Positions 2,768 through 51,166 of a stretch of 64,000 nucleotides of DNA are shown here, one piece after another (position 1 is the first letter of the stretch; every line of letters starts with the position of its first letter). Origin of the DNA: Octopus vulgaris (Eukaryota). Where the stretch lies: contig OX597818.1 in assembly GCA_951406725.2 (NCBI GenBank), positions 104,284,001 to 104,348,000 of the forward strand, given 5' to 3'. A model generated the notes under the pieces. It worked only from the letters and a program-made list of their open reading frames with translations, ran no database searches and was not told the origin of the DNA. The translations under genes were made by a program, and so were the position numbers.

Positions 2768-2840
<73 letters not shown>

Positions 2841-2845
<5 letters not shown>

Positions 2846-3687
2846 TCAACAATATAAGGAATGGCCCTAATAGGCCATTCGACTCACTAGAAAGAGCAGC
2901 CAAACTCAAGCCGCTAAATAGTTGTAATTCTGAAATTGAAAGAGAAATAAAAACATTTACCCTTTTCATATCTGGACTATGCATAGTTTCGACAAACTAG
3001 TAAACAAATTAATTAAATTAAATTTAATTTATTTACAACTGGCGTGTCTCGTCAGCAGAGAAGCCGAGGACGAGTATATGTCCACGAGGCGACGGCAAAA
3101 TCCACCGCCACCGCGCGGTCTTCTCAGCAGCAAATATAAACTGCTGATTTAATTTCAAAATTAGCCAAAAAATCATTAATTAATAAATATAAGGGTAGCA
3201 AAAAAATTCTAGAAAAAATTCTTCGCTACCAGCGGTCTAGTGAGAAAGAAAGGATAGTCAAAGCCTATATGATATACATTCAACAATATAAGGAATGGCC
3301 CTAGTAGGCCATTCGACTCACTAGAAAGAGCAGCCAAACTCAAGCCGCTAAATAGTTGTAATTCTGAAATTGAAAGAGAAATAAACACGCCAGTTGTAAA
3401 TAAATTTAATTTAATTTAATTAATTTCTTTACCAAAGTTTGTCGAAACTATGCATAGTCCAGAGATGAAAAGGGTAAATGTTTTTATTTCTATTTCAATT
3501 TCAGAATTACAGCTATTTAGCAGTTTGAGTTTGGCTGTTCTTTCTAGTGAGTCGAATGGCCTATTAGGGCCATTCCTTATATTGTTGAATGTATATTATA
3601 TAGTCTTTGACTATCTCTTCCTTCTCACTAGACCGCTGGTAGCGGAGAATTTTTTCTAGAGATTTTTTGCTACACTTATATTTATTA

Positions 3688-3690
<3 letters not shown>
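2841..3690 (-). mobile_element. Non-autonomous hammerhead-bearing retrozyme-like element, family A: ~1.25 units of 434 bp on - strand (2841-3385) plus an inverted partial unit on + strand (3385-3690), within (TA)n
   Basis: tacattcaacaatataaggaatggccc recurs at 2841 and 3275 (period 434). 3385-3690 is the reverse complement of the same unit. No real ORF; TA/TG microsatellites on both sides; HHR inside. Confidence 0.85.
2971..3059 (-). ncRNA. Type I hammerhead ribozyme (canonical core)
   Basis: Minus strand reads tctg-CTGACGA-gaca[long AU-rich loop]tgtc-GAAA-ctatgcatag-TC-caga. Stems I and II pair, stem III is palindromic, cleavage triplet GUC. Confidence 0.9.
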
Positions 3691-3721
<31 letters not shown>

Positions 3722-3840
3722 ATGTGTGTATCTACATGTGTATGTGTGTGTGTGTGTGTATGTGTGTATCTACATGTATGTGTGTATGTATATATAATAT
3801 ATATATATATATAAATATATGTATATATATATATTATATG

Positions 3841-4322
3841 AACACCCGTTCCACCACGAATCGAAAACGAACTACGGTAAGAACTCTTCCCATTTTGTAT
3901 GCAAACACCCTAATGCACACAACATGAACAAAAAGCACAAACAAAATAGATATTGTTTTGAACAGACCATTAGCAGTAGAAATAACAGGAGATCATTTTC
4001 AAGACCTCAACAGAGATTACCCACAAGAAACTGGACAAAAAACCGATCTAGATCTAGAAGTAAACCCAGATCATTTCTCCAGGTGGTTAAAAACAATGCT
4101 AACAAGAAATTGAAAAGTAGCATACATAATACCAAAAACAAGACAGAAAACATAACGAAACCAAGTAAAGTACCACAACCAAAACGCAAAATTCATCAAG
4201 CAAACATCAACAGGAATATAAATCATAACCAGAAAAAAATCCATTTTTTTACGTCAGGACAACAAACACCGGAGAAAGAAAAAATCCAAGAGGAAACATA
4301 CCCCAAACAACTGAACGTATAG
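3841..4322 (+). CDS. 3' part of a basic, low-complexity upstream ORF (ORF1-like) of the PLE, overlapping the RT frame in -1
   Basis: Stop-free Arg/Ser/Lys/Asn-rich frame (RSRSRSKPRSF) ending at TAG 4320-4322; overlaps the RT frame from ~4250. Confidence 0.5.
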
Positions 4323-6555
4323 ATCCTAAAATAATTAATTTATCAAAAAGAGATCTTGACAATGATGAAATCCAACTTCTGTCAAAAGGACTGAAATTCA
4401 CACCTACACCAACAGCCAACCACCAAGAATTAAAGGAGGATATCCAAAAATTCTGTCGAAAATTACGACTTGTAGAATTCTTCGCTAACAAAAGTAATGA
4501 GATTGATGAATCCCTAGTAAGGAATAAATCAAATTTCACCCCACCAAAAGGAAGAAATAACTACCTTGACCAATACATTGATATCCTGTCTAAATTTCCC
4601 CTTAGACGCAATACCAATGTTAGGCCAAACATTAGCAAATCAGAGATGTCTGCATGTAAACGTATACAAAACGATCAAACAATAATAATTAAACAAGCAG
4701 ATAAAGGTGGTGCAATTGTTATTATGGATACCGAATACTATAAGGATTTGGTTGAAGACCAACTGAAGGATACAACCTTCTATTGTGAAATACCCGCAAA
4801 TATAGACCACCACATCATGAAAAAGATCAACAACCTGATTTCAACACACCACAACTCACTTACGGATAATGAAAAAGACTACATCACCAATTTTGAACCA
4901 AAACCCAGCAACTTCTACGGCTTACCAAAAATACACAAATCAAAAAACATTCAACAGGCAGTAAAAGAACAAGAAAGTGAGTACATAAAATTATTACATC
5001 CAAAAGACCTAAAACTTAGACCTATTATAGCTGGTCCAGCATGCCCTACACACCGTCTAAGCAATTTTATTGACATTGTTTTGAAACCACTATGTACTTA
5101 CATACCAAGTTTCATCAGGGATGACATCGACTTCCTGTCCCATCTTCCCAAAACAACAGAAACAAATTCAGTTTTACTAAGTTTTGATGTGGTAAGCCTC
5201 TACACCAATATTCCACACGATTTAGGAATAAAGGCGATTAAATACTGGTTAGAAAAACATAGAGAAGTGATTCCCAGCAGATTCACAGTGCCATTTATAT
5301 TAGACACAGTCAAACTTATTCTAGAAAATAACACATTCTTCTTCAATGGAAAGAATTACATCCAAATTAGAGGCACGGCGATGGGAACGAGGTTTGCTCC
5401 CGTTTACGCCAACTCTGTAATGGGATACTTAGAAGAACAACTCTACCAAGAGGTGGAGGTAAACTATGGCACTGGATTTAGAAAGTATATTGAAAAGGCA
5501 TGGAAGAGATACCTAGACGACTGTTTCATAATCTGACAGAATCTCTAAATACTCTGGAAGAGTTCAATATCCTCCTGAACAACCTACACCCATCTCTCAA
5601 ATTTACAAAGGAGATGAGTAGTACCAAATTACCATTCCTGGATATAATGGTAATTAAAAAAGACACCACCATCACCACAGATATATACTATAAACACACA
5701 GACACACATCAATACCTAAATTTTAAGTCGTGCCATCCACCACATACAAAACGTAACATCCCATACTGCCTAGCCAGAAGAATTTGTACTATTGTAGAAG
5801 ATGCAAATATCAGGAACAAACGCCTAATAGAACTAAGAGAATTTTTGCTCAAACAAAAATACCCATCTCTACTTATAGAAAATGGCATACAGCGGGCTAT
5901 AAAAATACCTATACAACAACTTAGGACAACCCAAGGAAGAGGAAAACAAGAACAAGTCATACCATTCATAGTGACACACAACCCATGTCACCAGAATATC
6001 TTCAACATTGCCAAAGCAAACCTACCAATCATTGCCCAAAGTAATGAATTAAAAGACATAATCAAGGATCGAGCTATGGTGCTTAGTAAAAGACAGCCTA
6101 AAAACTTGAAAACATTACTAACAAAGGCAAAATTTGACCTCAGCAACAAAGACCAAACATTCACGGTATCTAAATGCAATGATAGCCGATGTGGCACATG
6201 CCAATTCATACATACCGGTCAATATATAAACACAAAAACCGGGAAAATATTCACAAACGCGAATATGAACTGCAAAAGCAGAAATTTAATTTACTGCATC
6301 AAATGCCCAAATTGTGAAGAAATATATGTAGGTCAGACGGGAAACGCACTATTAGAACGCTCACGTGTACACCGGCAACAGATTAGAGACCCAGAGGTCC
6401 GTCAGATACCTTTGAGTAACCACCTAGCAACATGTGGTCGGAAAATATATATAATATTTCCATTCTACAAATTACACAGCCCAAGTGAAATCGAGAGGAA
6501 AATCAGAGAAAAGAATTTTATTGATAAATTCGAACCCAAGCTAAATAAGCAATAA
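4250..6555 (+). pseudogene. PLE reverse transcriptase / GIY-YIG endonuclease ORF broken by a single 1-nt frameshift
   Basis: Frame is open from ~4250 through ORF 4646-5536. At ~5534 atc-tg-aca is TGG (Trp of YLDDCFIIW) missing one G, shifting into ORF 5500-6555. Confidence 0.9.
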
Positions 6556-7049
6556 TAATAATACTTAGAGGTATTACTTCCACTGCTACGACCATGACCA
6601 CTAACAACAACAATAATACTAAAGGTGATCAAGACGAAGATAGCAGGAAAATTATCTTATTTTGGGTTAAAAGTTCTATTGCCACCACCATCACCACTAG
6701 CAACAATAATTAAGGTGCTGACAATGATGATGATGACAATTGAAATATAAAAATATAAAAATCTCTGACAAAGGATATTTACAACATTTCTAAAAATAAC
6801 CCAACAATTGCTGCTTCGGCCAGGGTCAAGATACAGGACTCTTGACCTGTCCAACAAAGCGTGATGCCTAAACCAATCAGCTCAACCAACCAATCAGCTT
6901 AAGTAATTGAGTGATACTACACACTGATTGGTCAGAATACAGTTTGCAAAACCTAGCACTCTGGAGCCTACCCAGCTGTATTTATAGCACAGAATCACTC
7001 ATCTTGCTACAGTCAAAAATTGTGAAGCATGACTGTCAACACTACTACA

Positions 7050-7094
7050 TGAACCCGAAGATTGCAGAATTCAATGCATGAAAGTACTAGTTCA
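7050..7094 (+). ncRNA. Minimal type I hammerhead (U4C core variant) in PLE 3' region
   Basis: tgaac-CCGAAGA-t-tgca-gaattcaa-tgca-t-GAAA-gtac-TA-gttca. Palindromic AGTACT stem III, CUA triplet. PLE pLTRs are known to carry minimal HHRs. Confidence 0.75.
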
Positions 7095-7314
7095 ATCAGA
7101 ATGAATATTTAACATTCTACTATTTCATTTTATTTTATTCAATTATAATATATTATCTTATAATATATCATTATAAGATTGTAAATAAAACGTGAAAATC
7201 AGACAAGGTTGGAATTCTTTTTATTAATATATTCTTCTATACACAATCACACACACCCATATATATATATATCTATATATATATATATATACATATACAT
7301 ACATACACGCACAC

Positions 7315-10220: not shown

Positions 10221-10313
10221 ATTCTAGTCTACATATGTTTCCTGGCTAACAGAACCACGGAAGTAATAATTACTCGACGAGGGGTACTCCACGAGCTAAT
10301 CATCAGGTCGAAT
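10221..10313 (-). ncRNA. Degenerate hammerhead-like motif
   Basis: Minus strand: gac-CTGATGA-ttagct...agccag-GAAA-catatg-TA-gac; palindromic stem III, imperfect stems I and II. Confidence 0.35.
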
Positions 10314-16569: not shown

Positions 16570-16608
<39 letters not shown>

Positions 16609-16609
<1 letters not shown>

Positions 16610-19600
16610 ATTAATTAATAAGGGTGAGAGAATTAGATACTAATTTAATAGTATATTTATTCCACACCAAGTGGCCTAGTGCTACGAGAAACCTGGATTA
16701 TTATAATATTTTATAACATATTATAATATTTTCACAAAATAAATATAAGAGAGTGTTCACTATATTGATCACTCTAGCACCAGTTAATCCAAGAGGTTTC
16801 AACCACGAAAAATACATGTTTCCCATGAAAGCCGGTACGACTGTTAGCTCACACGGACAGGGCAAATAAAAAATAACAAAAATACAGTGATCAATATAGT
16901 GAACACTCTCTTATATTTATTTTGTGAAAATATTATAATATGTTATAAAATATTATAATAATCCAGGTTTCTCGTAGCACTAGGCCACTTGGTGTGGAAT
17001 AAATATACTATTAAATTAGTATCTAATTCTCTTACCCTTATTAATTAATTATAATTATGCTGCATTTATTTCTAAATGCTGTATTTGTTTTCCGTGAGAG
17101 TTTGGCGCGCTGTTGGTTGGGGCATTTGAATTATAACGTCCGATGTAATCAATTGAACCGCACGCGTATTTATCGTTATGGTAAAATCTGGCGTGTGATT
17201 GAGTGGATTTCATCCAGATAGTCTTGGCTGAAGAGCTACAAATGGATTACTGTAAGTAATATTACATTTAATTCATTAATAGCGAAACAATTGTCCCAAA
17301 ATAATCTGTATTTTTGTTATTTTTTATTTGCCCTGTCCGTGTGAGCTAACAGTCGTACCGGCTTTCATGGGAAACATGTATTTTTCGTGGTTGAAACCTC
17401 TTGGATTAACTGGTGCTAGAGTGATCAATATAGTGAACACTCTCTTATATTTATTTTGTGAAAATATTATAATATGTTATAAAATATTATAATAATCCAG
17501 GTTTCTCGTAGCACTAGGCCACTTGGTGTGGAATAAATATACTATTAAATTAGTATCTAATTCTCTCACCCTTATTAATTAATTATAATTATGCTGCATT
17601 TATTTCTAAATGCTGTATTTGTTTTCCGTGAGAGTTTGGCGCGCTGTTGGTTGGGGCATTTGAATTATAACGTCCGATGTAATCAATTGAACCGCACGCG
17701 TATTTATCGTTATGGTAAAATCTGGCGTGTGATTGAGTGGATTTCATCCAGATAGTCTTGGCTGAAGAGCTACAAATGGATTACTGTAAGTAATATTACA
17801 TTTAATTCATTAATAGCGAAACAATTGTCCCAAAATAATCTGTATTTTTGTTATTTTTTATTTGCCCTGTCCGTGTGAGCTAACAGTCGTACCGGCTTTC
17901 ATGGGAAACATGTATTTTTCGTGGTTGAAACCTCTTGGATTAACTGGTGCTAGAGTGATCAATATAGTGAACACTCTCTTATATTTATTTTGTGAAAATA
18001 TTATAATATGTTATAAAATATTATAATAATCCAGGTTTCTCGTAGCACTAGGCCACTTGGTGTGGAATAAATATACTATTAAATTAGTATCTAATTCTCT
18101 CACCCTTATTAATTAATTATAATTATGCTGCATTTATTTCTAAATGCTGTATTTGTTTTCCGTGAGAGTTTGGCGCGCTGTTGGTTGGGGCATTTGAATT
18201 ATAACGTCCGATGTAATCAATTGAACCGCACGCGTATTTATCGTTATGGTAAAATCTGGCGTGTGATTGAGTGGATTTCATCCAGATAGTCTTGGCTGAA
18301 GAGCTACAAATGGATTACTGTAAGTAATATTACATTTAATTCATTAATAGCGAAACAATTGTCCCAAAATAATCTGTATTTTTGTTATTTTTTATTTGCC
18401 CTGTCCGTGTGAGCTAACAGTCGTACCGGCTTTCATGGGAAACATGTATTTTTCGTGGTTGAAACCTCTTGGATTAACTGGTGCTAGAGTGATCAATATA
18501 GTGAACACTCTCTTATATTTATTTTGTGAAAATATTATAATATGTTATAAAATATTATAATAATCCAGGTTTCTCGTAGCACTAGGCCACTTGGTGTGGA
18601 ATAAATATACTATTAAATTAGTATCTAATTCTCTCACCCTTATTAATTAATTATAATTATGCTGCATTTATTTCTAAATGCTGTATTTGTTTTCCGTGAG
18701 AGTTTGGCGCGCTGTTGGTTGGGGCATTTGAATTATAACGTCCGATGTAATCAATTGAACCGCACGCGTATTTATCGTTATGGTAAAATCTGGCGTGTGA
18801 TTGAGTGGATTTCATCCAGATAGTCTTGGCTGAAGAGCTACAAATGGATTACTGTAAGTAATATTACATTTAATTCATTAATAGCGAAACAATTGTCCCA
18901 AAATAATCTGTATTTTTGTTATTTTTTATTTGCCCTGTCCGTGTGAGCTAACAGTCGTACCGGCTTTCATGGGAAACATGTATTTTTCGTGGTTGAAACC
19001 TCTTGGATTAACTGGTGCTAGAGTGATCAATATAGTGAACACTCTCTTATATTTATTTTGTGAAAATATTATAATATGTTATAAAATATTATAATAATCC
19101 AGGTTTCTCGTAGCACTAGGCCACTTGGTGTGGAATAAATATACTATTAAATTAGTATCTAATTCTCTCACCCTTATTAATTAATTATAATTATGCTGCA
19201 TTTATTTCTAAATGCTGTATTTGTTTTCCGTGAGAGTTTGGCGCGCTGTTGGTTGGGGAATTTGAATTATAACGTCCGATGTAATCAATTGAACCGCACG
19301 CGTATTTATCGTTATGGTAAAATCTGGCGTGTGATTGAGTGGATTTCATCCAGATAGTCTTGGCTGAAGAGCTACAAATGGATTACTGTAAGTAATATTA
19401 CATTTAATTCATTAATAGCGAAACAATTGTCCCAAAATAATCTGTATTTTTGTTATTTTTTATTTGCCCTGTCCGTGTGAGCTAACAGTCGTACCGGCTT
19501 TCATGGGAAACATGTATTTTTCGTGGTTGAAACCTCTTGGATTAACTGGTGCTAGAGTGATCAATATAGTGAACACTCTCTTATATTTATTTTGTGAAAA

Positions 19601-20660
19601 TATTATAATATGTTATAAAATATTATAATAATCCAGGTTTCTCGTAGCACTAGGCCACTTGGTGTGGAATAAATATACTATTAAATTAGTATCTAATTCT
19701 CTCACCCTTATTAATTAATTATAATTATGCTGCATTTATTTCTAAATGCTGTATTTGTTTTCCGTGAGAGTTTGGCGCGCTGTTGGTTGGGGCATTTGAA
19801 TTATAACGTCCGATGTAATCAATTGAACCGCACGCGTATTTATCGTTATGGTAAAATCTGGCGTGTGATTGAGTGGATTTCATCCAGATAGTCTTGGCTG
19901 AAGAGCTACAAATGGATTACTGTAAGTAATATTACATTTAATTCATTAATAGCGAAACAATTGTCCCAAAATAATCTGTATTTTTGTTATTTTTTATTTG
20001 CCCTGTCCGTGTGAGCTAACAGTCGTACCGGCTTTCATGGGAAACATGTATTTTTCGTGGTTGAAACCTCTTGGATTAACTGGTGCTAGAGTGATCAATA
20101 TAGTGAACACTCTCTTATATTTATTTTGTGAAAATATTATAATATGTTATAAAATATTATAATAATCCAGGTTTCTCGTAGCACTAGGCCACTTGGTGTG
20201 GAATAAATATACTATTAAATTAGTATCTAATTCTCTCACCCTTATTAATTAATTATAATTATGCTGCATTTATTTCTAAATGCTGTATTTGTTTTCCGTG
20301 AGAGTTTGGCGCGCTGTTGGTTGGGGCATTTGAATTATAACGTCCGATGTAATCAATTGAACCGCACGCGTATTTATCGTTATGGTAAAATCTGGCGTGT
20401 GATTGAGTGGATTTCATCCAGATAGTCTTGGCTGAAGAGCTACAAATGGATTACTGTAAGTAATATTACATTTAATTCATTAATAGCGAAACAATTGTCC
20501 CAAAATAATCTGTATTTTTGTTATTTTTTATTTGCCCTGTCCGTGTGAGCTAACAGTCGTACCGGCTTTCATGGGAAACATGTATTTTTCGTGGTTGAAA
20601 CCTCTTGGATTAACTGGTGCTAGAGTGATCAATATAGTGAACACTCTCTTATATTTATTT

Positions 20661-20662
<2 letters not shown>
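16609..20662 (+). repeat. Retrozyme-like tandem array, family B: inverted partial unit (16609-16887) plus 7 x 534-bp direct units and 38 bp (16887-20662), flanked by (TA)n
   Basis: gtgatcaatatagtgaacac starts at 16887, 17421, 17955, 18489, 19023, 19557, 20091 and 20625. Units are almost identical, have no ORF and carry one HHR each. Confidence 0.95.
17224..17299 (+). ncRNA. Type I hammerhead ribozyme, copy 1 of 7 (others at 17758, 18292, 18826, 19360, 19894, 20428)
   Basis: ttgg-CTGAAGA-gcta[41-nt loop]tagc-GAAA-caattg-TC-ccaa. Canonical core, G10.1-C11.1 pair, GUC cleavage after 17295, palindromic stem III; stem I extendable (cagatagtc/aataatctg). Confidence 0.93.
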
Positions 20663-20702
<40 letters not shown>

Positions 20703-24989: not shown

Positions 24990-27460
24990 GAAAACTCAAT
25001 TCAATGTTTCTTGTTTTGTGTTTTGTAATAAAGGGCAGATTATTGGATGTATCTGGAGCGTTTTTCGTAGTTCTTCGACTTTTGTCTTGGAACGTTCTAT
25101 TTCGTTGTCTATTAGTATTAATGGAGATTGTCTTTTCAGTAGTACTTGCTTCAGTTCCTGGACTGCTTTGTTATGATTTTCAGGGCTTAAGACAATTGTG
25201 AAGATTCTTCTTGCTAGATTAAATGAGATTTTTATTCTTCGTGTGTTTGGGATGGCATGAGTAGCATAGTAAGTATTGTTTGTAGTGAATATCCATTTCA
25301 ATGATTTTATCTCTTTTGATGATTACTTCATCCAAGAATCGTAGTTGAGTTTTATTGTATTCCATGGTAAATCTAATATTATTGTTTGTGCTCTTCATTA
25401 GACTTTTGAAGTTGGCAAGTTGTTCAAATATGTACATCCATAGGATTAGGCAGTCATCTAAGTATCGTTTCCAGTTTTCTAATAGATATTTAGATTGTTC
25501 ATATGTTTGGACTTCCATATATGCCACGACTAGATTAACGCAAATCAGAGCAACTTTTGTTCCCATCGCTGTCCCAGATATTTGTTAGTAAATATTGCCA
25601 TCCAAGTCAGAAAAGTTGTTTTCGAGGATAAACTTTAAAGCGTCAGTGATGAAACTCGTTGCAATTTTGTGCGGAATTTCATGAGGGACATTTTTAAGTC
25701 AGAAATTTATTGCCTTAAGTCCATATTGGTATGAGATTGTGGTATACTCGTTCACCACAGAAAAAAGAGACAATAGTGGTATCATTGCTTATGAACTTTG
25801 GGAGGTGGTTTAACAGGTCCAGGTCGTCTCTCACAATCCTTGGTATGTATTTTAAAATAGGCTTCATTAATATATCCCAAAAGTTGCTGTATCTGTGTGT
25901 TTCGCTGTTCGGGCTTGCTACGATTGGACTAAATTTAAGGTCGGTGGTATATTGTATGCTTTATGCCACTTGAAGTTGGTTCTTTACAGGCATTCTTAAT
26001 AGTTTGATACTTATGAGGTTTTGGAAGACCGTAGCAGTAGCTGGGCCTGCAATCACAGTGTATTAAGTAGTCACATTGTTTGTTTGTTAAACCTTTTCGA
26101 TGTTTGTGAGTAAATGTGTCCAGTTTAGTCATTGTCTATTGTTTTTGGTAAATATTTACGTTTTTGTAGTGGATCATACCTTATAGCATAGAATATCTCT
26201 TTTGTAGTGTTCTATATCCATAATAACTATTGTACTTCCCTTATCTGCTTCCTAACTATAATGTCATTATTGATTTTCAGTTCATGTATACTATCCCATT
26301 CCATTCGAATTTTATTGGGTTTGATTTTAAGGTCGTGGAAGTTCTTTGTAAAAATAAGGTAAAAATAAAATCACAAAATTTATCTAGAGCTTGTAATTGG
26401 TCTTGTTTCTTACAATTGAATCATCTCTGATTTCTTTATCGTACAATTCTTCTGTTAGGCGTAGTTTTCTAGCGAACTGTGAAACATCGTTCTGTATTTT
26501 ATTAGATTTAGGGTGCTGTGATGTTGGGGCAAATTTTAAGCCTTTTGACAAAATATTGATTTCTTCCATTGAGAAAGTTTCTTGAATAGGTTAATTATTT
26601 TCGGTTCTCACTTTCAGTTTGCAGCAACTGGTGTCTAGACCTCTATCGGTTGAATCTAAAAAATGATTTTACAAAGTTTTCCTTTTATTACTATTTATAT
26701 ATCCGGGGACATTTTCTCCCTTAACTTGTCCCCTTTTGTATTGATTTTATACGTTTGTTGCTCTGGACTGTGTTTATTTCTTTCTGTAATTGTCTTTTAA
26801 GTTGGTAATATATCCGTAGTGTATGTCTTCGGTTTGGCGGAACGTTCAGTGCAGTCGGAGAGAAAACATCGATTTTAGTTCGATCATTTTGTTGTAGAAG
26901 TATTCTTGAATTGTCTTTATGGAATTGGTGACTACAATTTCCAAATTTAGGTGTTTGATTAATCAGTCGCAAATGGGATTTGTGGATTTTAACTTTCGTC
27001 AGGAATGTTTTCTCGAGAATCATAATTGGAGAAGCAAATATCACTTCTCTCCCACCATTCAAGAAATGTTTTCCACGTTTTCACATTTTTTCTCTTTCCA
27101 AAGTTTAATATTGTTTTCTCAGCCTTCGGATGTTTTTGAAATTTCTGCTTGCATTTGGGTATCAATTGTTTTAAATATTTCGTCGTTGGAATTTTCTCTT
27201 AGCCGTAATAGCTGGGTTTCCATTTTGAATTTGTCGAGAGCCAGCATTTCTCTAAGTTATTTGTTATTGTTCGGGTTCATTAGCGATAGTTTGTATTTAT
27301 AGTTTCTTTGGGAGGATGATCGGTGTTGAATGGCGCCATGTTTCATGTTATTCCAAAAAGCAAATTTACAGGCTGTAATGTTTTCGTTCCATATATGCTT
27401 AATAGTGTTTTCGATGCGACGGTTTCTTTCAGTTTCCGTCAACCATATCCATTCTGAAGG
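24990..27460 (-). mobile_element. Decayed Penelope-like element of the same clade as 3841-7260, retaining upstream ORF remnants and lacking the GIY-YIG end
   Basis: ILSKGLKFAPTS..FARKLRL, YGLPKPHK, MGTKVA, WKRYLDDCLILW, LRFLD, NLARRIFTIV in broken frames. Upstream remnants read IWNENI..FAFWNN, PIILPKKL, LREMLALDKFKME. Confidence 0.9.
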
Positions 27461-47891: not shown

Positions 47892-50544
47892 TCAGTAGTT
47901 TTATTTTTATAGCGTGCTTTCACTTCACTACCGAGCGCAGCTCTGAGTGCCTTTGATATGTGCTGTGATTTGTTGTGATGCTCTGGTGGTTATTGTATGG
48001 AAAGTGTTCTGCGTAGGATGTGCGCAGTGCCTAGTAATGCAATTTTCTGTATGTTATATGTGTTTGTAAGTCCTGGTGTTTTTGTTATGTATTTGTCTGA
48101 ATATTTTTTTATCATGCCTAATGCACCTACTATGATAGGAATTGTTTCTGTTTTTAGATTCCACATTCTGGTTACCTCTATTTCCAGGTCTTTGTATTTT
48201 GAAAGTTTCTCCATTTCTTTTAGAGACATGTTGTCATCTGCTGGTATTGATACATCAATTAGAAAGCATTTTTTTCTTCATGATCTCTGACAACTATATC
48301 TGGTCTGTTGGCCTTAACTTCTCTATCTATGTGTATCGGCATATCCCAGAGTATGATTGCTTTCTTGTTTTCTGTGACATTTTCTGGTGTGTGCCTATAC
48401 CATCTTTTTTCTGTTGTTATTCCATAATGTTGGCATAGCTTCCAGTGTATGTAGGTCCCAACTCTGCCGTGTCTATGAATATATTCCTTCTTAGCCAGGA
48501 CTGGGCAGCTAGAGATAATATGATTTATTGTTTCTTGTCCATCTCCATATATTCTGCAGTTACTTGTTATATTTCTTTTCATTACATGATTTGGTAATTT
48601 CTGATGGGGAGGCTTTGGTCTTGTGCTGCAATTAAAAATCCCTCTGTCCCTGCTTTGAGTCCTGAGCTTCTCCACCATTACTGGGATTTTTCTTCGTCTA
48701 TTTCTTTTGCATTTAGTTTAGTCCAGTATTTACCATGAAGGGGCTTTTCTTGCCATCGTTTTATCATGGTTCTTTGCTGTTCTAGTTTTAGTTTGGATTT
48801 CATTTGTTTTATATCTTTTGTTGTTTCTTCTTCTTCTTCTTCTTCTTCTTCTTCTTCTTCTTCTTCTTCTTCTTCTTCTTCTACTCTTCATCTTCTTCTT
48901 CTTCTTCTTTTTCTACCTCTTCTTCTTCTTCTTCTTCTCTTCTTCTTCTTCTTCTTCTTCTTCTTCTTCTTCTTCTTCTTCTTCTTCTTCTTCTACTTCT
49001 TTTTCTTCTTCTTCTTCTTCTTCTTCTTCTTCTTCTTCTTCTTCTTCTTCTTCTTCTTCTTCTTCTTCTTCTTCTTCTTCTTCTTCTTCTTCTTCTTCTT
49101 CTTCTTCTTCTTCTTCTTCTTCTTCTTCTTCTTCTTCTTCTTCTTCTTCTTCTTCTTCTTCTTCTTCTTCTTCATATTTGTTAGGTGGTATGATTTCTTG
49201 TTTGTATTTGTCAGCTTCTTTAAATACTGAGAACAGTTTTTAGTTTTGCTCGTGTTTTGCCGCTATTTGTATCAGTTTTTCTTCCTGCTGAAGTAGATAT
49301 TTTTGCAGTTCTATGGTGGTTATTTTATAGTAGTTTTCCAGCTGCATAAGGCCTCTACCACCTTCTATACGTTGTATATATAGTCTTTCTATGTCAGATT
49401 TTGGGTGATGCATCCTAGATCCTGTCATTATTTTTCTTGTTTTCCTATCTATTTTGGTCAGTTCATTTAGTGTCCAGTTAAGGATATTGTAGCTGTAACT
49501 TATAACTGGGACGGCTAAAGTGTTAATACCTATTATCTTGTTTTTAGCATTGAGCTCTGTTTTTAGTATTGATCTAACTCTTGTATAATATTCTTTTTTT
49601 ATTTTCTCTTTCATTTGTGTGTGTTGTGTTTTATCTAGTTCATGGATTCCTAAGTATTTGTAAGTTTGGCTTTGGTCTGATTCTTTTATTTCATTGGTTT
49701 TATCTAGTGTGATGTTGCTACTCTTAACTAGTTTTCCTCTTTTCAGGGTTACTTTGGCACATTTTTCTAATCCAAATTTCATATATATTTCTTTGGTAAA
49801 TCCATGAACTGTCTTTAATAGTGTTTCCAGCTGTTTGTCATTTACAACGTATAGTTTTAGGTTATCCATATATAAAAGGTGGCTGATCGTTTTGCCGTAA
49901 CATTTATATCCGCATCCAGTTCTATTTAGCATATCAGATAGAGGTGACAGTGCCAAGCAGAAAAGGAGTGGAGAGCGCGTGTCTCCCCGGAATATTCCTC
50001 TTCTAATGGGGATGGCTTTGGTTTTCACGAGTCTCTCTTTTGTTTGGAGCTGTAGCACTGTTTGCCATTTATTCATAGAGTGTCCTATGTATTTTATAAT
50101 TGTTGGTACTACTTTGTTAATGGCTAGTGTTTCGAGGATCCATGTGTGGGGGATACTATCAAACGCCTTTCTGTAGTCGACCCATGCCATACTGAAGCCT
50201 TTCTTCTTTCTGTGGCTGTCTTTAGTTATGGCTTTATTGATCATTAGTTGATCTTTACAGCCGTATGAGCCTTTGTGGAATCCTTTCTGCTCTTCTGGAA
50301 ACAGGTTGTTTTCGTCCAGGTGCTTGTTCAACCTTTGCGATATCACTGCAGTAAATGCCTTGTACATTGTAGGGAGACAGGTTATTGGTCTGTAGTTTTC
50401 TGGTTTTGCTGTCTCATTGGATTTGGGAGTTAAGATGGTTTTCCCCTTCGTGAGCCATTCAGGCATTGTCTCTGGCTTTGCCAGTATGTTGTTAAAGCTT
50501 TCAGCCAGCTTTTTGTGTATTCCTGGTAGATATTTTAACCAGAA

Positions 50545-50545
<1 letters not shown>
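47892..50545 (-). mobile_element. R4/Dong-clade non-LTR retrotransposon (RT + CCHC + restriction-like endonuclease), 5' truncated, inserted in (TAA)n
   Basis: ORFs 49240-50466 (NYRPITCL, DYRKAFDSIPH, GIFRGD..SPLLF, YMDN), 48259-48678 (C..ETINHIISSC, RH, NRPDIV) and 47990-48229 (KLSKYKDL, VGALG). TTA arrays on both flanks match the known TAA targeting of Dong. Confidence 0.92.
48823..49174. repeat. (CTT)n/(GAA)n expansion inside the LINE coding region
   Basis: ~350 bp of nearly pure ttc repeats. Confidence 0.95.
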
Positions 50546-50610
<65 letters not shown>

Positions 50611-51166
50611 GAGTGAGAGAGCAGTTCATGCCATCAAAGTGACACTGGGGTAAAATATACGAAGCCCAATATACCCATCATGACTATCTGTCTGATAAGG
50701 GTACACTAGGCACATGCTTCACAACCATATGTGCGCGCATGGTGATCTCATATCAAGATAAACAGCACATGACCTTGCAGGTGGGGCCCACTTAGAATTT
50801 TCTTCAGGTTGAGTAGCCCATCCCGCTCAAAAGGTCCCTGAATAAGGGTTGTTTAAGGATGTTGAAAGAACCACCCATGTTTCCAGAGGTGAACTATTCA
50901 AACCCCAAAGAATCCCTCTCAACACATGGCTATGATGCTCCCCCACTACTTCTGCTCGTGATCAGAGATGCACATATCGTCAGCCACTAAGGGACATGCT
51001 CAACTGGTTATGGTCAAACAACTGACAAGCAAATCTGTGGTATTGAGCAGAATATTTGCTGTAGCCCATCTTTTATACCAAGACAAAACAATGTACATGA
51101 TAACACTTCCAATCAGTTAAGATCAGAAGACATGAGAGCCAATGCCTGGTACTGCATCAGGGCATT
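50611..51166 (-). mobile_element. Non-coding insert between TAA arrays, probably the 3' UTR of a TAA-targeting LINE
   Basis: Higher-GC unique block bounded by (TTA)n on both sides; no ORF. Confidence 0.4.

Follow-up and report, generated by a model that had tools for sequence, protein, structure and literature searches.

The window analysed here is a stretch of 64 kb, G000:C5:104284001-104348000, from a (TA)n-rich host genome of 2.8 Gb in 227 contigs, and it contains two families of hammerhead-bearing tandem repeats, A and B, with units of 434 nt and 534 nt, respectively. At each locus an arm of tandem units is joined to an inverted arm, and both arms carry parts of the segment that concerns us, i.e., a predicted structured domain with two CTTA-like motifs (motif 1 and motif 2), each followed by a zone in which insertions end (E1 and E2). 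In each unit of A and B, a type I hammerhead motif precedes motif 1 by about 110–150 nt and shares the strand of the domain. The features of both loci, and of a neighbouring Penelope-like element (PLE), are the following:

16883..20663, + strand: family B tandem arm, ~7 units of 534 nt that are >99% identical; 3' end at E1
16606..16887, − strand: family B inverted arm; 3' end at E2
17224..17299, + strand: family B hammerhead motif, type I, read by hand; core at 17228, palindromic stem III, predicted cut after 17295
17410–17418 with 17509–17517, + strand: family B predicted helix P1, closing the first module; pair probability 1.0; co-varies across 7 families
17419..17443, + strand: family B predicted hairpin P2, directly 5' of motif 1
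17444..17459, + strand: family B motif 1 (CTTAT) and end zone E1; CTTATATT at 17444, E1 lying 11–15 nt past the motif start
17462..17491, + strand: family B AU-rich hairpin within the P1 loop; differs between families
17519..17570, + strand: family B conserved linker and predicted hairpin P4, GGTG at 17525–17528 with CACC at 17567–17570
17571..17590, + strand: family B motif 2 (CTTAT) and end zone E2, the latter mostly 10–16 nt past the motif start
2839..3388, − strand: family A tandem arm, a 434-nt unit with the full domain and a hammerhead (core at 3055), followed by part of a further domain that stops at E1
3385–3690, + strand: family A inverted arm, carrying the domain; 3' end at E2
3543..3689, + strand: family A domain; P1 at 3543–3551/3624–3632, P2 at 3554–3575, CTTATATT as motif 1 at 3576, P4 at 3638–3674, motif 2 at 3675
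3840..7262, + strand: neighbouring frameshifted PLE, a separate insertion; RT at 4229–5536, GIY-YIG at 5494–6555, hammerhead near 7050–7095, tail of ~35–45 nt

By sequence, A and B are classified as non-LTR retrozymes: their tandem units each bear a type I hammerhead and are non-coding, and target duplications of >4 bp were observed at four selected retrozyme loci with non-TA flanks. No open reading frame of at least 150 aa was found over the A or B units. The hammerheads of A, B, B2 and E (the last two being further families described below) were read by hand and comprise the core, stems I and II and a palindromic stem III, the copy in family F being degenerate. A search of Rfam gave nothing relevant over the 64-kb window or at either locus and also missed the hammerheads of A and B; no match reached the gathering score, the best E-values being 1.9 (B) and 3.8 (A). 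The 5' ends of 16 of 106 arms lie within −5 to +25 of the hammerhead cut, a count that short arms confound. GC-rich words are present in the spacer of B at 17636–17666, followed there by TTTGAA, as well as in L042 and in the spacers of B2 and F; they resemble E2F sites and might form an internal promoter.

The PLE at 3840–7262 is Neptune-like, as judged by a linker motif described in PMC8557442. Its family has intact 775-aa ORFs elsewhere, with at least 150 identical matches, and is very young; the copy in the window has a frameshift near 5500–5536 and a changed hammerhead core (CC for CT). It was considered as a carrier of the domain and rejected, as no model match was obtained and the folding of its 3' region is not distinguished from that of shuffled sequences (z −0.83). 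Other repeats in the window include an old broken PLE fragment at 25059–26566 (−), 34–44% identical to the young family, a 461-aa RT-like frame of a non-LTR element at 49240–50625 (−), judged by eye, and hammerhead-like cores in further repeats at 10306 (−), 42625 (−) and 42834 (+), the last two facing away from each other on opposite strands.

A conserved predicted RNA domain

The common layout of the domain consists of the long-range helix P1, which encloses P2 and the first CTTA-like motif, followed by P4 and the second CTTA-like motif. Two similar modules can be recognised, in each of which a hairpin has a CTTA-like motif directly after it, with P1 enclosing only module one; the spacing from motif 1 to motif 2 is 88–127 nt across families. 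The six sequence features that the first-pass annotation had listed for A and B were all found, each in its reported place. Nevertheless, CTTATATT, which had been considered invariant, has variants in families E, F, I and J, and the small hairpin with a GGT loop, formable in both A and B, is not conserved and is outcompeted by the longer P4 (GGT..ACC). This small hairpin was rejected because RNAalifold on 18 relatives gives P4 instead, the outer pairs of which have a probability of 0.84–0.99 in 7/7 families. A helix of motif 1 with the GG upstream of the P1 3' arm was predicted in F and I only, and was not adopted.

The same fold was found in five more tabulated families and in held-out subfamilies. 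Flank mining of the retrieved loci gave B2 (503 nt), E (560 nt), F (~470–480 nt), I and J, each with about 900–2400 candidates at first look, as for A and B. A covariance model built from these families was searched over the retrieved loci and matches subfamilies outside its input in L042, L082, L039, L192 and L196, as well as two in L264. A 15-nt pattern formed by the P1 3' arm and the linker gave 1227 matches versus 8 for the reversed control, and contigs of three other organisms cover the B domain region partly or fully with high identity. Of a family K, at L142:2210-2545 and L160:1710-1960, only short arms were seen, which end at E1 or E2 and bear the end motifs of the other families. At L053/L091/L163 (G000:C3:41198000-41200000), copies of I, E and A and a piece of the 717-aa PLE described below are nested in each other's (TA)n runs.

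The covariation proposed earlier between the structures of A and B was upheld for P1 in wider sets. Over seven families, with the register set by hand, 55 of 56 P1 pairs are kept (cross-family mean, 6.0/8), a result reached by 1 of 5040 permutations of the arms, and the outer four pairs of P4, mostly invariant, are kept in 27 of 28 cases, with 360/5040 permutations reaching the observed score; these permutation counts overstate independence because the families are related by descent. For P2 the left arm was picked by best pairing. Among older A-like copies, where the 5' arm was located by sequence alone (20 rows kept; 23 matches skipped, with an arm or motif 2 missing), 70 of 80 inner P1 pairs are formed versus a shuffle mean of 53.0 (0/10000). 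A MAFFT alignment of 18 relatives, namely these 20 rows minus four (L216, L231, L234 and the second L042 copy) plus two A copies, has 91.3% of its cells paired, with 11 of 24 pairs changing on both sides and a covariation of 0.304 versus 0.170 (0/500), and slid controls pair at 30–51%. From the same relatives RNAalifold recovered, unaided, P1, the inner P2, part of a small loop hairpin and P4. Relatedness among the sequences inflates tests of this kind. The predicted folding of the B domain is better than that of shuffled sequences (z −4.46, with 0/200 shuffles as good), and representatives of the seven families gave z values from −2.5 to −5.6. It is likely that the domain folds as RNA; the sequence would fit folding of the single-stranded cDNA equally.

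Insertion end-points and pairing of the arms

In the window, the long arms stop about 8 nt past CTTATATT, at 20662 (+) in B and ~2843 (−) in A, and the inverted arms stop past motif 2, at 16606 (−) in B and 3689 (+) in A; all four ends enter (TA)n, in agreement with the first-pass annotation. The mapping of 251 outer 3' ends from 164 loci of the seven families gave 100 at E1, 137 at E2 and 14 elsewhere, in which the E2 counts are inflated because most queries ended at or near E2 (those of A, E, F, I and B2; the J query ended at E1 and that of B spanned both, with 22/24 on-site) and include a few read-throughs, since the I and J references stop at E2. The tabulated termini form the two clusters anticipated from A and B: 237/251 ends fall a short distance downstream of motif 1 or motif 2, mostly 10–20 nt 3' of a helix-abutting CTTA-like motif, within two 32-nt zones that amount to 11–15% of a unit, and 216/251 are followed by TA-rich DNA. 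An anchor-based tally of ends misclassified some read-throughs and was used for spotting duplicates and for the 775-aa PLE family only. L150, L152 and L158 were taken as one duplicated insertion; a PLE fragment that abuts the B2 arm in L150 and L152 was not taken as evidence for a partner, as it lies within a segmental duplication common to L158.

Among 89 two-armed head-to-head loci (87 within a single locus and 2 across overlapping loci), 75 have E1 and E2, 12 have an off-site end and 2 were called E2+E2. The latter are not true same-site pairs, given that L040 represents a secondary 700-bp inverted duplication and L193 a read-through. One end of each kind is present in 75/75 on-site retrozyme pairs; if sites were chosen independently under the E2-biased selection, about one third of the pairs would be expected to be E2+E2. 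The assignment of the long arm to the first site did not hold as a rule, for the E1 arm is longer in 18/53 loci.

Neither arm is nested in the other at 19 of 53 loci; at the other 34 one arm contains its partner, and both orders occur (24 and 10). Arms longer than one unit are frequent (27/106), the arms overlap in template, and an E2 arm ends near the E1 zone at a single locus of the 53. The junctions show overlaps of 1–5 nt in 27/53 cases. Target duplications are not discernible in (TA)n targets; at four hand-picked loci with non-TA flanks they measure 14, 15, 17 and 18 nt, and the same two end sites are used. In 34 of 52 comparisons, the two arms of a locus differ less from each other than the family median, and 67 private variants are shared between arms versus 200 unshared. 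This similarity within loci fits a single multimeric or circular template, gene conversion or fold-back copying being also compatible with it.

The autonomous PLEs of this genome show the same pairing of ends, with 19/19 mixed head-to-head pairs over three families, i.e., 7/7 in the 775-aa family, 7/7 in the 899-aa family (tail of ~155 nt, with one E1 14 nt early) and 5/5 in the young 717-aa family (L306-L334), whose tail of ~70 nt starts ~35 nt past the hammerhead. The 899-aa and 717-aa families are, by their motifs, presumably Hydra-like. The 899-aa PLE (L293 at G000:C1:119513000-119522900, L295 and L302) is young and forms 3.6-kb tandems in which a 13-bp long-range helix encloses the second end site, an outer helix extending into the start codon. 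The 781-aa family (L263, L268 and L261) has two ends and a hammerhead with an altered core, and its second end is preceded by a short hairpin with CTTAT. A search of the 3' ends of five PLE families with the model R1 revealed no autonomous PLE bearing the domain, and their end motifs differ; the misses of this model are weak since it derives from a poor cross-family alignment (A1, 7 base pairs).

Proposed mechanism and its alternatives

In non-autonomous Penelope-like retrozymes, the segment described here is conserved, its predicted helices co-vary and insertions end at two fixed sites within it; we consider it fairly probable that it forms an RNA fold that positions a PLE RT/endonuclease to start copying at both. 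A PLE protein, probably as a dimer, would bind the domain within a retrozyme RNA that is multimeric or circular, and would make staggered nicks in the two strands of an AT-rich target; E1 would be primed from one nick and E2 from the other, with each helix-plus-motif serving as a ruler. Each cDNA would then grow in the 5' direction of the template, the one begun at E2 passing through E1, and short microhomology would serve to join the free ends head-to-head; the interval from E1 to E2 would correspond to the PLE tail. Given that both outer ends are RNA 3' ends, each arm would start at a target nick. Two separate primings, one per target strand, are favoured by the arms that are not nested and by the target duplications of 14–18 bp.

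It is also conceivable that the fold is conserved for another purpose, such as stability of the circle, free folding of the hammerhead or export, and that nothing but AU-rich microhomology with the nicked (TA)n determines where insertions end. In favour of this, both end zones are rich in A and U and share a few bases with the TA run, and autonomous PLEs reach two ends without the domain. Against it, the two sites are also used where the flanks are not TA, the unit's other long AU-rich stretches seldom serve as end-points (14/251 ends off-site), the distance from motif to site is similar at both sites despite the spacing of 88–127 nt between motifs, and microhomology leaves the one-of-each pairing unexplained. 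We consider this explanation unlikely. L1 5' inversions have head-to-head arms with microhomology at the junction. The arms studied here resemble them, which could suggest twin priming of the L1 type on one linear RNA, where the E2-primed cDNA halts at the second primer at E1. Such an event on one linear pass was rejected because an E2 arm ends near E1 in only 1/53 loci; moreover, the arms overlap in template and 27/106 exceed one unit, which makes this explanation highly improbable.

A different account, an older view of the tail put forward in PMC8557442 and PMC3846280, invokes a single RT start; the second arm would be copied by fold-back from the first cDNA, and its end would be the endonuclease cut that resolves the intermediate. 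It yields one of each end by construction, and arms often share private variants, as counted above. Nevertheless, a fold-back copy cannot yield arms of which neither is contained in the other, and it is therefore contradicted at 19/53 loci; the nesting of the other 34 goes both ways, and PMC11167929 reports that both tail ends of the anole element are RT starts in vitro. We regard this account as decidedly unlikely.

The reading that best accommodates these comparisons would be that a PLE complex is anchored on both helix-plus-motif modules and primes twice in a coordinated way, each time at a different site and on a different strand. Of the proposal in the first-pass annotation that the domain is a cis element recognised by a PLE RT/endonuclease, the part that stands is a conserved, predicted structure with two end-points, as indicated by the covariation of P1 and the clustered ends; recognition by the enzyme is what we infer, and it would fit the in vitro start sites reported for the anole PLE in PMC11167929 and the three autonomous PLE families analysed here. 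Only tentatively can it be suggested that the domain is a discrete and portable two-site RNA that recruits RT and loads an asymmetric PLE dimer, each subunit priming a different site and strand, and that, with no autonomous carrier among the PLE families sampled, it is perhaps a structural mimic by which the retrozyme clan hijacks non-homologous PLE proteins.

PLEs are the closest retroelement relatives of telomerase, and among the papers found a single one addresses in vitro how they recognise RNA and produce inverted insertions with one tail. The families described here provide a compact natural phylogeny for a candidate recognition element: its helices are defined, compensatory variants are at hand and two start zones are mapped, which makes it amenable to mutagenesis in binding and priming tests. 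The one-of-each rule, together with the non-nested arms, would limit the mechanism to two coordinated primings, and a candidate cis signal for the mobilisation of animal retrozymes can be named.

Comparison with known elements

Animal retrozymes were defined, and their link to PLEs was proposed, in PMC7229834, PMC4209133 and bioRxiv 10.64898/2026.07.22.740005. The metazoan non-LTR retrozymes described in the available parts of PMC7229834 and the bioRxiv report are similar to the families studied here in their non-coding tandem units, type I hammerhead and low G+C, as well as in target duplications of >4 bp and a presumed mobilisation by PLEs. They differ in that the hammerhead is the only conserved motif given in those parts, which mention no end domain, fixed ends or inverted-arm rule.

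The autonomous PLEs of this genome (775-, 781-, 899- and 717-aa) share with the retrozymes the (TA)n targets, the hammerhead and the two end sites; the 899- and 717-aa families are also alike in their long tails (~155 and ~70 nt), and the one-of-each pairing was observed in the three families counted. Unlike the retrozymes, these PLEs gave no match to the domain model, and the long-range helices of the 899-aa element are laid out differently.

With regard to the tail itself, PMC11167929 describes for the anole PLE (the Poseidon element PAc) two internal RT start sites that correspond to the tail; both strands were extended, and a dimer was predicted. PMC3846280 and PMC8557442 assign the tail to one pLTR of the inverted pair and consider resolution by the endonuclease and self-priming. 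As presented in these three sources (PMC11167929, PMC3846280 and PMC8557442), the tail resembles the pattern found here in its two alternative 3' ends downstream of the hammerhead, its presence on one arm of an inverted pair, its AT-rich targets and a start site that needs no match to the target. The two-end pattern is therefore already described as the PLE tail, and only the structured domain appears to be undescribed. No description of this domain was found in the open-access literature, and the comparative sequence data indicate that a conserved predicted RNA domain, likely undescribed, is real and carries the known two-site PLE tail in the retrozyme clan. The length does not agree, since the known tail has 30–40 nt and the motif spacing here is 88–127 nt. 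Likewise, the known tail has one AC-rich stem-loop, whereas here helix-plus-CTTA modules are duplicated within a multi-helix domain and the carriers are non-coding.
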